Below are positions 1,476 to 43,783 of a stretch of 64,000 nucleotides of DNA, one piece after another; the first letter of the stretch is position 1; every line of letters begins with the position of its first letter. Source of the DNA: Escherichia phage vB_EcoP_SU10. A program made the position numbers and the translations under genes. The notes under the pieces are model-generated. The model searched no databases. It saw nothing but the letters and a program-made list of their open reading frames with translations, and was not told the origin of the DNA. The stretch lies in sequence record NC_027395.1. One strand, given 5' to 3'.

Positions 1476-1504
1476 TGTTGTTGATAATGTAGAAGGAGTA
1501 TAAA

Positions 1505-8992: not shown

Positions 8993-9001
8993 TAATGTAT
9001 A
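8993..9001 (+). promoter_or_regulatory. TAATGTATA motif (candidate phage-sigma -10-like promoter element)
   Basis: Exact 9-mer, intergenic, between the terminator and the ATG at 9035 (33 nt leader). The same 9-mer recurs at 25627, 36306 (+), 36234 (-) and 43026 (-). Confidence 0.55.
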
Positions 9002-9034
9002 TTCTTTGTCTACATATAACAAGGAGGACAACCT

Positions 9035-25606: not shown

Positions 25607-25626
25607 GACCTAAGTCCTGCCTTCTA

Positions 25627-25635
25627 TAATGTATA
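25627..25635 (+). promoter_or_regulatory. TAATGTATA motif upstream of the 1473-aa gene
   Basis: Exact 9-mer, intergenic, 38 nt before the ATG at 25674. Confidence 0.5.
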
Positions 25636-25673
25636 TAGGGGGTAGGACATTTTTATTTATAAAAGGAGACGTT

Positions 25674-32958: not shown

Positions 32959-34450
<1,492 letters not shown>

Positions 34451-34711: not shown

Positions 34712-34946
34712 AATGCATCTCTTTATAAACGGTTTCCGTGTTCTTCTTCCAGTTAGATAAACCGGTAAGAACTCTCTGAGCAACTTCATCAGCTGCTCTA
34801 TTTCTTTCAATCTCTAACTCTTGCTGGTGCTTCTCTTTGTCCAGATTACTGCTGTCTGTTTGATATTCGTTAAACTTCATACCACCAAAGAATACAAGAG
34901 CTGAGAAAACGATAAACCCTAAGTTATCACTTAACGTGTTTTGCAT
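34596..34946 (-). CDS. i-spanin (116 aa)
   Basis: ATG at 34946. N-terminal TM segment LGFIVFSALVFFGG followed by charged coiled coil. Confidence 0.7.
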   Translation of the reverse strand: MQNTLSDNLGFIVFSALVFFGGMKFNEYQTDSSNLDKEKHQQELEIERNRAADEVAQRVLTGLSNWKKNTETVYKEMHYEKTKPVFYNVCASDEYVSLFNERQQQAINALTNKPKS

Positions 34947-35427: not shown

Positions 35428-36174
35428 TCAAAATGGGCTATCGTTGTCGTCTTCGTAAGTAGAAGCAGGCTCTTTATCAATCGTAGGGATTGAAGGGGTA
35501 GCTTCTTTCTGTTCTGTTTCAGAAGCACGAGTAATTTCACGACCAGCCAGAGGCATGTTCTTAGCGTCATTAGCTTGAGTAAGCAGGTTGCGCTGGAACG
35601 GGAACATCAGTTGATAGGATGCTACGTTCTCATCGGTTTCAGCATATGGTTCGAAGAATACCATAGGACTACGAGCTTCACCAACTGCTGCACGATATTT
35701 GGTTGGGATTGGAGAAATGGTCTTGATGGAGTTTTTAACTTCACCAGCTTTGTTAGTGTAAGAGTTAACCAGAATGTTAACAGGCTGACCTAACAGCACA
35801 TCCTTGAACCAAGACAGATCACCTTTCAGTGCTTGAATACTTGGGTCAATCATCTTGCAAAGATCAAGAATACCAGAGTTCTTAGCTCGTGGGTTTACAT
35901 CATAACTCTTGAACTGGCAAGCCGGACGTGGTTCTAATGCCTTACCATCGGAATCTTTACCAGTAGCATCAACACCAATCAGCTCGAAAGCTAAATCCAT
36001 ACGGAAAGTCGGATTCTTAGGAGTTACTGCTTTGGTCTTCGGGTCAATCCAAGGGTCACGATTGTGAACACCCAAACCTACTACACGAACGATACGTGCT
36101 TCGTACTCACCATCAGGGATTACATCGTAGTTGGATTTACGGGAAGCAGTTGCGATAGTTGGAATCATAGACAT
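35428..36174 (-). CDS. single-stranded DNA-binding protein (248 aa)
   Basis: Acidic C-terminal tail ending YEDDNDSPF, as in SSB and T7 gp2.5 tails. Highly expressed codon style. Preceded by a promoter motif. Confidence 0.55.
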   Translation of the reverse strand: MSMIPTIATASRKSNYDVIPDGEYEARIVRVVGLGVHNRDPWIDPKTKAVTPKNPTFRMDLAFELIGVDATGKDSDGKALEPRPACQFKSYDVNPRAKNSGILDLCKMIDPSIQALKGDLSWFKDVLLGQPVNILVNSYTNKAGEVKNSIKTISPIPTKYRAAVGEARSPMVFFEPYAETDENVASYQLMFPFQRNLLTQANDAKNMPLAGREITRASETEQKEATPSIPTIDKEPASTYEDDNDSPF

Positions 36175-36233
36175 ATTTTAATTTCCTTATTTAATTTGAA
36201 AGATTGTTGCTCTCTTTGAGCGGTTATGTATAG

Positions 36234-36242
36234 TATACATTA
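36234..36242 (-). promoter_or_regulatory. TAATGTATA motif on the minus strand upstream of the SSB gene
   Basis: Plus-strand tatacatta. 59 nt upstream of the ATG at 36174. Embedded in the palindrome ttaTGTATAgTATACAtta. Confidence 0.5.
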
Positions 36243-36305
36243 CGCTTATACCGATAAGAGTACTATATAATATAAGTATCTTTGGTAGTAGATATAACAC
36301 ACTAG

Positions 36306-36314
36306 TAATGTATA
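36306..36314 (+). promoter_or_regulatory. TAATGTATA motif on the plus strand, divergent from the 36234 copy, with no downstream ORF
   Basis: Exact 9-mer. The plus-strand sequence downstream has no ATG-initiated ORF up to the inverted repeat at 36411-36476. Confidence 0.35.
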
Positions 36315-36410
36315 TATTGTATAGCTGATAAAGTTATTGCAGGCTTGTATATTGGGCAATTCACAGAATCCCTTGCAAGTACCGAAGGGCAGGAGACACC
36401 TGCGAGATAA

Positions 36411-36476
36411 AAATAGAGAATTAAGGAATCCTTGATTTAGGTTGTAGGGACTCCTAGGGACTTTGATTCTCTATTT
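36411..36476. repeat. 11-bp inverted repeat AAATAGAGAAT / ATTCTCTATTT with a 44-nt spacer; likely minus-strand terminator or structured RNA
   Basis: Arms at 36411-36421 and 36466-36476. On the minus strand the stem runs into TTTTTATCTC. The spacer contains tagggact twice. Confidence 0.5.
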
Positions 36477-36590
36477 AAAAGAATATTAATTACTTATTAC
36501 CTAAATAATTAACTAACTTACTTAAACCAAATTCAATAAGAATAGATAAAAAGATTATTCCTAAGAAAGCTAAGAAGTAAACAATATAAG

Positions 36591-36755
36591 TTACCATTCA
36601 AGTAAACCTTTAAAGTTAGATTGTTCTACTATCCTCTGATAACGAAGATTAGAATCAGCTTGTTTCTTTAACATCTCATTATATTGATCTCTGATAGAGT
36701 CTTTATGTACTACAGGTTCTTTAAATAACGAGATCTTGTTCTTTTCTTCTTTCAT
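36591..36755 (-). CDS. hypothetical small protein (54 aa)
   Basis: ATG at 36755 with a GGAAGG SD. Overlaps the end of the phosphoesterase gene by 35 nt. Confidence 0.35.
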   Translation of the reverse strand: MKEEKNKISLFKEPVVHKDSIRDQYNEMLKKQADSNLRYQRIVEQSNFKGLLEW

Positions 36756-42674: not shown

Positions 42675-42989
42675 TTATGAGCTTAAAGCTCCTTTGCGTG
42701 CTCCAGCTGCTTTTCCAGCTCGATCACCACTTTTGCCGCCGTTTGAACGGTTTGAGCTGACTGATTCAACACGTAAGTTGCTTGACGCATTAGAGCCTCC
42801 AGACTTGACAGCTCGTTTGTGTCCAACGTCTTTACCTCTGACAGCAGCTTTTCCATCGCGCTTTTCAACGATGCGACGTGCACGGTGGCGCTGAGCATCT
42901 CCGCTCTTGCTCCCAACGCCTGTCTCACCACGGGCAATTGCGGTACGTCTTTCTTGTGCATAATCTCTCTTTCCTACATGATCTGCCAT
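42675..42989 (-). CDS. hypothetical basic R/K/G/S-rich protein (104 aa)
   Basis: Strong AAGGAG SD. TAATGTATA motif 36 nt upstream. Almost completely overlapped by a second same-strand ORF (42683-42961). Confidence 0.5.
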   Translation of the reverse strand: MADHVGKRDYAQERRTAIARGETGVGSKSGDAQRHRARRIVEKRDGKAAVRGKDVGHKRAVKSGGSNASSNLRVESVSSNRSNGGKSGDRAGKAAGARKGALSS

Positions 42990-43025
42990 TTAAAACTCCT
43001 TAATATATCAGTGTACACTAAGGAG

Positions 43026-43034
43026 TATACATTA
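43026..43034 (-). promoter_or_regulatory. TAATGTATA motif on the minus strand
   Basis: Plus-strand tatacatta, in the intergenic gap between phoH and the 104-aa gene. Confidence 0.5.
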
Positions 43035-43045
43035 TAAGTTACTGT

Positions 43046-43783
43046 TTAAGCTTTCTTTTCCATTGCTTTAACAATCGCCTTACAGAAACCAGAACGAACA
43101 ATGTCATCCGATTCTCCGTCTACAATCTCAGCGAACTCATACAGATCATGTTCATCAATAAAGTTAGTAGCCCAAGTAAGACCACTCTCACGACCACGCA
43201 TATCATGCTGGTTTGTATCACCCATACAGAACAATTGAGAGGTTTCTCCCAATCGAGTCATGATGGAGAAGGCTTCATCCTTAGTTGTGTTCTGGAACTC
43301 ATCTACGATAACAATGGCATCATTGAAAGAGCGACCACGGAGATATTCCAGAGGTACAAATTCAATGTTACCATTTCCGATTTGGCATTCATAGAATCCC
43401 TTACCATATCGCTGAGTAATAACATCAATGATAGGCATCAGGTAAGGTTCAAACTTCTCACGCATTCCTCCCGGAAGTAACCCAAGAGAGTTTCCCATGC
43501 CAACCGAAGGGCGACTCAGAATGATCTTCTGAATCTTACCACTTTTCAGTGCATCGATAACCGTGGAAGTGATTACAAAGGTCTTACCACAGCCCGCAGG
43601 AGCGTCTGTGAACACAACTTGTTTAGTCTTAATAGCATTGAGTAGCTCAGACTGAAACTGGTTCTGAGGGACTACAGGCTTTGCTAAAACCACCTCTTCA
43701 TACTCTCGCTTACCCTTACGAGTAACAAGTGCTTCCCGACGAAGGTCTTTCCGTGATTCTTTCCGTGATTGACGACGACTCAT
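43046..43783 (-). CDS. phoH: PhoH-like ATPase (245 aa)
   Basis: Walker A APAGCGKTF, Walker B IVIVDEFQN, and overall PhoH-like layout. Confidence 0.85.
   Translation of the reverse strand: MSRRQSRKESRKDLRREALVTRKGKREYEEVVLAKPVVPQNQFQSELLNAIKTKQVVFTDAPAGCGKTFVITSTVIDALKSGKIQKIILSRPSVGMGNSLGLLPGGMREKFEPYLMPIIDVITQRYGKGFYECQIGNGNIEFVPLEYLRGRSFNDAIVIVDEFQNTTKDEAFSIMTRLGETSQLFCMGDTNQHDMRGRESGLTWATNFIDEHDLYEFAEIVDGESDDIVRSGFCKAIVKAMEKKA

Follow-up and report, generated by a model that had tools for sequence, protein, structure and literature searches.

A recurrent 9-mer in Escherichia phage vB_EcoP_SU10 corresponds to the gp36-dependent promoters of phiEco32 and points to a candidate seventh promoter

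Introduction

Escherichia phage vB_EcoP_SU10 (NC_027395.1) carries the 9-mer TAATGTATA at positions 8993–9001 and again at several other places in its genome. This recurrence raises the question of what reads the sequence and whether all of its copies have the same function. Here, the question is addressed computationally for a 64,000-nt stretch of DNA, referred to below as the window. The window comes from a Kuravirus, a podovirus resembling phiEco32. Over 10 kb, the window shares 97% identity with phage CHD5UKE1, and a similarity search retrieved 99 related records. A preliminary description had proposed that the 9-mer is a phage-specific promoter element read by the sigma factor of the phage itself. 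The gp36-dependent promoters of phiEco32 were reportedly described by Pavlova et al. (2012, J Mol Biol 416:389), and their structural basis was published in 2025.

According to PMC4331800, the experimentally determined gp36 consensus is tAATGTAtA, the same 9-mer, which is located upstream of phiEco32 genes 6, 13, 26, 40, 58, and 68. PMC4281155 places the motif 6–8 nt upstream of the start points at three middle and three late promoters. Table S3 of PMC8948821 lists TAATGTAgA for P6, TAATGTATA for P13, P26, P40, and P58, and aAATGTATA for P68. Both P26 and P68 are transcribed in vitro by the core polymerase with gp36, and gp79, which inhibits sigma-70 transcription and co-activates the gp36 holoenzyme, stimulates this activity (PMC12276001). 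In the 3.4 Å cryo-EM open complex on P68 (PDB 9m7y), AATGTA is centered at −11.5, the gp36 N-terminal domain makes base-specific contacts to −14A, −13A, −12T, and −11G, and in the C-terminal domain R187 contacts −37G and Y186 contacts the T opposite −34A; mutation of the contacted bases abolishes transcription (PMC12276001).

Results

Distribution of the 9-mer in the window

An exhaustive scan of the window finds exactly five exact copies of TAATGTATA, at 8993 (+), 25627 (+), 36234 (−), 36306 (+), and 43026 (−), the same positions and strands that the preliminary description had listed as a minimum. The expected count is 0.49, which agrees with the earlier estimate of about 0.5, and five or more copies occurred in none of 100 dinucleotide-preserving shuffles. 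The class of one-mismatch copies is not enriched, with 18 observed in the window and 18.3 expected, and near-copies as a class are therefore noise rather than promoters in general. Only two of them are meaningful, namely AAATGTATA at 47195–47203 (−), which had been noted from the start, and TAATGTAGA at 1485–1493 (+), which the preliminary description had missed.

The window has a G+C content of 42%, and its intergenic DNA is A+T-rich. All copies had been claimed to be intergenic, and in the phiEco32 annotation this is true of 5/5 orthologous exact copies (P ~6e-6), where 8.9% of the genome, and 4.2% of its portion matching the window, is intergenic. Among the one-mismatch copies of phiEco32, 8 of 20 are intergenic (1.8 expected).

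Six sites correspond to the published phiEco32 promoters

A scan of the phiEco32 genome (NC_010324) together with alignment matches six sites of the window one-to-one with the phiEco32 promoters. All of them are intergenic and lie on the coding strand:

P6, late promoter, 1485..1493, plus strand: TAATGTAGA, predicted +1 at 1500; orthologous to phiEco32 1677
P13, late promoter, 8993..9001, plus strand: TAATGTATA, predicted +1 at 9008; orthologous to phiEco32 9101
P26, late promoter, 25627..25635, plus strand: TAATGTATA, predicted +1 at 25642; orthologous to phiEco32 26014
P40, middle promoter, 36234..36242, minus strand: TAATGTATA, predicted +1 at 36227, ATG of the gene 40 homologue at 36174; phiEco32 36632
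P58, middle promoter, 43026..43034, minus strand: TAATGTATA, predicted +1 at 43019, ATG of the gene 58 homologue at 42989; phiEco32 42937
P68, middle promoter, 47195..47225, minus strand: GGTAGTAGATA (47225–47215), 11-nt spacer, AAATGTATA (47203–47195), predicted +1 at 47188, ATG at 47155; phiEco32 46862

Between about −60 and +45, P26, P40, and P68 match phiEco32 at every base, and P13 and P6 each show one difference; P68 thereby has the very sequence of the promoter in the cryo-EM open complex. The distances between 9-mer and ATG given earlier (33, 38, 36, and 39 nt, and 59 nt for gene 40) are correct. Among the six sites listed in the preliminary description, five are published promoters, while the copy at 36306 (+) is not one of the published six. 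The start sites are derived from secondary citations and from the numbering of the structure paper, by which the 9-mer occupies −15 to −7 and +1 lies seven nt past it (PMC12276001).

The window also encodes the two phage proteins that act at these promoters:

gp36 sigma factor gene, 33344..33991, minus strand: 215-aa ORF, 100% identical to phiEco32 gp36 and to PDB 9m7y chain F
gp79 gene, 53389..53637, minus strand: 82/82 residues identical to PDB 9m7y chain G

The ORF at 33344–33991, earlier called an ECF-like sigma factor, is thus real and is gp36; its match to the Pfam family Sigma70_r2 is weak, with a score under the curated cut-off. With an identical gp36, sites that are the phiEco32 promoters and a consensus that is the published one, the proposal of an element read by the phage's own sigma factor is borne out, and the phiEco32 consensus mentioned in the preliminary description is indeed the one given in PMC4331800. 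The copies of TAATGTATA almost certainly form the −10-like core, at −15 to −7, of the promoters for middle and late transcription in a phiEco32-like phage. The promoter behavior itself is carried over from phiEco32 to SU10 by sequence identity, as an inference from one phage to the other.

In SU10, as has been established for phiEco32, the host RNA polymerase core would accordingly be expected to bind gp36, whose N-terminal domain would read A-14, A-13, T-12, and G-11, with DNA melting from −11, while its C-terminal domain would contact the −35 region, on P68 at G-37 and the T opposite A-34. By displacing sigma-70 region 4 and stabilizing the gp36 C-terminal domain, gp79 would switch transcription from early to middle and late genes, with RNA synthesis predicted to start 7 nt past the 9-mer. 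The motif and its reading by gp36 are already known and not new. The main result is therefore that a regulatory code already in print has been correctly recovered from raw sequence, and no new biology follows from it; six promoters and two transcription-factor genes can be confidently annotated in SU10.

Several features of individual sites deserve mention. At P6, the predicted +1 (1500) is just 5 nt before the gene 6 ATG (1505), and an AAGGAG lies upstream of +1; an RNA started at P6 would therefore offer gene 6 almost no leader, or P6 would mainly serve the downstream terminase and portal genes. The P40 9-mer forms one half of an imperfect palindrome, TTATGTATA-G-TATACATTA (36224–36242), so that a one-mismatch copy on the plus strand faces it, and the palindrome is preserved in the phiEco32 and KBNP1711 haplotypes. 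The product of gene 40 (ATG at 36174) has no Pfam match, and the label “SSB” given to this gene in the preliminary description consequently has the annotation of one relative as its sole basis. Upstream of P58, the homologue of phiEco32 gene 59 is missing from the window and a PhoH-like gene ends directly before the promoter, at 43046, which explains the unrelated upstream flank of P58.

A further one-mismatch copy, TAATGTTTA, lies within the gene 37 homologue just upstream of the sigma gene (34055–34072, −). The bases immediately before it are TAAGGCCTA in the window and, at the orthologous phiEco32 position 34877, the late-promoter box TAAGACCTA; in both phages the box abuts the 9-mer, a spacing that does not fit a late promoter. 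The literature refers to a predicted sigma-70 promoter within gene 37. The “promoter” features annotated in phages SU7 and 4E8 do not mark gp36 9-mers and were set aside.

Terminators and leader structures at the promoters

The preliminary description had also claimed a layout in which a terminator is followed by a restart of transcription, and this is right in substance. Intrinsic-terminator-like hairpins precede P6 (1454–1469) and P13 (8938–8961), and the P26 9-mer itself lies in the upper part of a 15-bp terminator-like hairpin (25614–25648) that is followed by the T-run ATTTTTATTT (z = −4.4). Transcription from P26 is predicted to start at 25642, within the 3′ arm of this hairpin; read-through RNA would therefore carry the whole terminator, while RNA initiated at P26 would not. 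The hairpin arms vary between genomes by G·U/A–U exchanges which preserve the pairing.

In the P58 region (42989–43034, −), ACTCCTT is located past the 9-mer but ahead of the predicted +1, and it pairs with AAGGAG, the Shine-Dalgarno sequence of gene 58. The predicted unpaired probability of this Shine-Dalgarno sequence, computed for five genomes, is 0.00 in read-through RNA as opposed to 0.64–0.97 in P58-initiated RNA. Given this contrast in modeled accessibility, translation of gene 58 may be coupled to initiation at the gp36 promoter. The same effect is predicted for the P13 Shine-Dalgarno sequence in the window and in phiEco32 only (0.04 vs. 0.74). At P68, a helix joins ATAACTCTC, located before the 9-mer, to GAGAGTTAT, a segment overlapping the start codon of gene 68 (47155–47212, −; z = −3.8), and KBNP1711 shows a compensatory A–U to C–G change in this helix. 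Masking of the ribosome-binding site at P68 was considered and set aside as weakly supported; the computed effect on Shine-Dalgarno accessibility is small.

The −35 regions

The gp36 promoters have previously been described as “single-element,” and the preliminary description likewise spoke of a single −10-like element. The −10-like box is confirmed; a strictly single box is not, given that gp36 also reads the −35 region (−37G and −34A on P68). Within the window, P68 and the 36306 (+) copy carry GGTA at −37 to −34, and all seven sites have a purine at −37 and −36 and an A at −34, a pattern derived post hoc for the other five sites. The composite pattern RRNA-N18-NAATGTANA has exactly seven matches, the six published sites and 36306 (+), with 1.0 expected; it was partly built from the same sites and is therefore descriptive.

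Beyond these positions, the late promoters P13 (8970–8978) and P26 (25604–25612) each have TAAGACCTA at exactly −38 to −30, which is kept in all relatives examined, and P68 shares GGTAGTAGATA at −37 to −27 with the candidate promoter at 36306 (+), termed Px below. The sequences thus suggest that −35 regions may differ by promoter class, with TAAGACCTA typical of the late promoters P13 and P26 and GGTAGTAGATA of P68 and Px. Such class-specific −35 regions might bear on how the temporal classes, whose 9-mer is the same, are told apart.

Conservation in related phages

Phages SU7, ECBP2, and Bas88 (Suseptimavirus or related) and KBNP1711 (Nieuwekanaalvirus) have retained the six promoter sites, so that the 9-mers persist at orthologous sites across three genera while their flanks diverge. 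The clearest case is P58, where the 9-mer and the leader are conserved and the upstream flanks are unrelated between genomes. The P40 9-mer is exact in 16/16 genomes examined.

More distant relatives are represented by three metagenomic IMG/VR contigs (L014–L016, around contig positions 1355–1390), whose gene 40 product is 66–69% identical. Upstream of the gene 40 homologue, these contigs carry GGTAC-N17-TAATGGATA, or GGAAC-N17-AAATGGATA in the case of L016, with the first G of GGTAC/GGAAC 22 nt before the 9-mer and a G in place of T-10. The exchange of T-10 for G suggests a co-evolved sigma specificity. A divergent Px-like copy is absent from the three contigs.

A candidate seventh promoter in the gene 40–41 spacer

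The remaining exact copy, at 36306 (+), is located 63 bp from P40, in divergent orientation, and is directed into the 315 bp of non-coding DNA that separate genes 40 and 41:

Px, candidate gp36 promoter, 36284..36314, plus strand: GGTAGTAGATA (−37 to −27), 11-nt spacer, TAATGTATA (−15 to −7), predicted +1 at 36321

Phage phiEco32 carries a copy of Px as well, at 36704. Px is absent from the six-promoter lists (PMC4331800; Table S3 of PMC8948821), and the primary 2012 paper may have tested the site. In its makeup, Px closely resembles P68: GGTAGTAGATA has only two exact copies in the window, one at Px and one at P68, both exactly 11 nt before the 9-mer, and the first G and the A of the Px box occupy −37 and −34, where gp36 makes its contacts on P68.

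The arrangement GGTAGTA-N15-TAATGTATA is invariant in 16/16 genomes, and among 12 Px haplotypes the segments −38 to −31 and −15 to −5 are invariant, while the stretch from −27 to −16 has no invariant column. The distance between the Px and P40 9-mers varies (63, 62, or 52 bp, and ~181–183 bp in L010/ES17); the fixed spacing of GGTAGTA to the 9-mer next to a variable distance to P40 argues that the GGTAGTA box belongs to the plus-strand unit. The whole gene 40–41 spacer is well conserved, which makes conservation alone weaker evidence for Px.

Px thus has the 9-mer, GGTA at −37, the P68 spacing, and a two-box conservation footprint, together with a covarying hairpin that begins at the predicted +1; it is missing from the published lists. 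On the strength of these features, Px is probably a functional gp36 promoter built like P68. The further proposal that Px is an undescribed seventh gp36 promoter which produces a discrete, structured, and conserved non-coding RNA is more tentative and falls slightly short of being probable.

The predicted Px transcript

No protein-coding gene lies downstream of Px on the plus strand. The putative product is a non-coding RNA:

Predicted Px transcript, non-coding, 36321..36480, plus strand: 5′ hairpin (36321–36337), variable middle part, ~100 near-invariant bases, hairpin at 36411–36476

The predicted +1 (36321) is the first base of the 5′ hairpin, in which two of six pairs show compensatory double changes (UA to GC; CG to UA or AU) and one GC/GU exchange occurs in addition. 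The middle part exists in two unrelated versions of ~40 and ~65 nt. Owing to its G·U pairs, the hairpin at 36411–36476 is more stable as plus-strand RNA, by 5–8 kcal/mol in every haplotype; its plus-strand tail has 3 U only, so that termination at this hairpin is uncertain. The Px RNA would measure ~155 nt where the spacer is of the phiEco32 type and ~180 nt where it is of the other type, begin with the covarying 5′ hairpin, end near the hairpin at 36411–36476, and be transcribed against the direction of the middle operon, in the interval from gene 41 to P40. The Px element is conserved throughout the E. coli Gordonclarkvirinae examined.

There is no Rfam match at E ≤ 1 on either strand of 36150–36650, no tRNA or tmRNA in the window (ARAGORN), no similarity of the predicted RNA to E. 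coli genomes, and no conserved ORF in the transcript segment. Two small plus-strand ORFs past 36306 (21 and 32 aa, with TTG starts) were rejected; in other haplotypes they are replaced by unrelated sequence of different length. Nothing relevant was found in the literature on kuravirus transcriptomics, antisense RNA, or the replication origin. The RNA could have a regulatory role or could serve in the activation or priming of replication.

The apical part of the long hairpin contains the direct repeats TAGGGACT-CC-TAGGGACT (36444–36463, +). In genomes of the Bas88/ECBP2 type, both repeats lack one G (AGGACT...AGGACT), and this concerted loss suggests a paired binding site or a structural constraint.

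If Px is active, a gp36-driven non-coding RNA adjoining gene 40 has been overlooked in the best-studied kuravirus. It would also provide a second natural promoter with a P68-type −35 box, useful for dissecting promoter choice by gp36 and gp79.

Discussion

Alternative explanations

The repeats might be chance matches or an effect of A+T-rich intergenic composition without any specific function, a reading with which the composition of the intergenic DNA in a window of 42% G+C and the unenriched one-mismatch class (18 against 18.3 expected) would agree. It does not account for five exact copies where 0.49 are expected and none of 100 shuffles reaches that number, nor for the confinement of all five to the ~4–9% of sequence that is intergenic. 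The 9-mers are moreover kept at orthologous sites in three genera despite diverging flanks, and the published experimental consensus (PMC4331800) is identical. Statistics and orthology with experimentally mapped promoters thus exclude this explanation, which retains practically no likelihood. It is also very unlikely that host sigma-70 is the main factor at these sites, with the 9-mer serving only as a variant −10 box in promoters of the extended −10 or TATA-like kind. The SU10 genome paper notes that middle promoters may be read by sigma-70 as well (PMC4281155), and a 9/12 match (TAGATA-18-TATATT) overlaps the 36306 (+) copy; however, this match is lost in other haplotypes, and sigma-70 scan matches around the sites are no commoner than in shuffled sequence. 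Furthermore, sigma-70 transcription is shut off by gp79, in vitro transcription from P26 and P68 has been obtained with the gp36 holoenzyme, and the structure has gp36 residues reading −14 to −11 (PMC12276001). For phiEco32, it is reported that the gp36 holoenzyme initiates at these sites and that purified sigma-70 holoenzyme does not. Recognition by gp36 therefore remains the preferred reading of the six sites.

For Px alone, an explanation other than promoter activity is less easily dismissed, and we consider it a serious possibility that still falls on the unlikely side. Here, 36306 (+) would not be a working promoter and its conservation would reflect another role of the gene 40–41 spacer, such as a DNA-level element (a replication origin or protein-binding site), a decoy or insulator site for the gp36 holoenzyme that modulates P40, or an RNA structure on read-through minus-strand transcripts. 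The absence of Px from the six published promoters, as far as the lists cited above extend, and the lack of a downstream gene on the plus strand are consistent with such a role, as is the spacer itself, which is 86–99% conserved in records covering at least 97% of a 701-base query and 79% conserved in the 71% that aligns in ECBP2. The TAGGGACT direct repeats and an A+T-rich stretch also resemble what is seen at some origins. A promoter, on the other hand, would explain why the spacing of GGTAGTA to the plus-strand 9-mer is fixed in 16/16 genomes while the distance to P40 varies, why Px has the very bases, −37G and −34A, with which gp36 makes contact on P68, and why a covarying hairpin starts at the predicted +1; the G·U pairs that favor the long hairpin on the plus strand by 5–8 kcal/mol point to the same strand. 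An origin-like GC-skew signal is lacking at 36.3 kb, with the sole inflection at ~30 kb, where gene orientation flips; since orientation dominates the profile, the skew is uninformative on the origin. Promoter activity of Px is thus the more probable reading.

Comparison with known systems

The closest counterpart is phiEco32 itself, in which P6, P13, P26, P40, P58, and P68 have the same consensus (tAATGTAtA), identical gp36 and gp79, and orthologous positions. The flanks are identical or nearly so at P6, P13, P26, P40, and P68, and the division is the same, with late promoters on the plus strand and middle promoters on the minus strand. There is no essential difference at the six sites; only the upstream flank of P58 differs, the window being without a gene 59 homologue.

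In Salmonella phage 7-11, the gp47-dependent late promoters likewise depend on a phage-encoded distant member of the sigma-70 family that redirects the host core, and they occupy similar genome positions; their consensus, in contrast, is different and overtly bipartite (GTAAtg-N16-aCTA; PMC8948821). Phage 7-11 also lacks a gp79 homologue and a middle class, and sigma-70 transcription is not shut off there.

Bacterial ECF (group IV) sigma factors resemble gp36 in consisting of two domains, one sigma-2-like and one sigma-4-like, and the arrangement of two boxes at P68 and 36306 (+), with GGTA at −37 and AATGTA at −14, is also similar. Unlike in the bacterial factors, the −10-like box of gp36 is long (9 nt) and dominant, the −35 region varies by promoter (GGTAGTAGATA at P68 and Px, TAAGACCTA at P13 and P26), and the protein scores under the Pfam Sigma70_r2 cut-off.

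In phage T4, late promoters consist of a single TATAAATA box and are read by gp55 with gp33, while middle transcription involves sigma appropriation by AsiA and MotA. The analogy to AsiA/MotA has also been drawn by others (PMC12276001). The T4 and gp36 systems are alike in that a short A+T-rich −10-like box defines a temporal class and that a small phage protein disables sigma-70 region 4 and co-activates the next class. They differ in that the proteins are unrelated and sliding-clamp coupling is not involved in the gp36 system, and in that gp36 has a sigma-4-like C-terminal domain of its own which contacts the −35 region.
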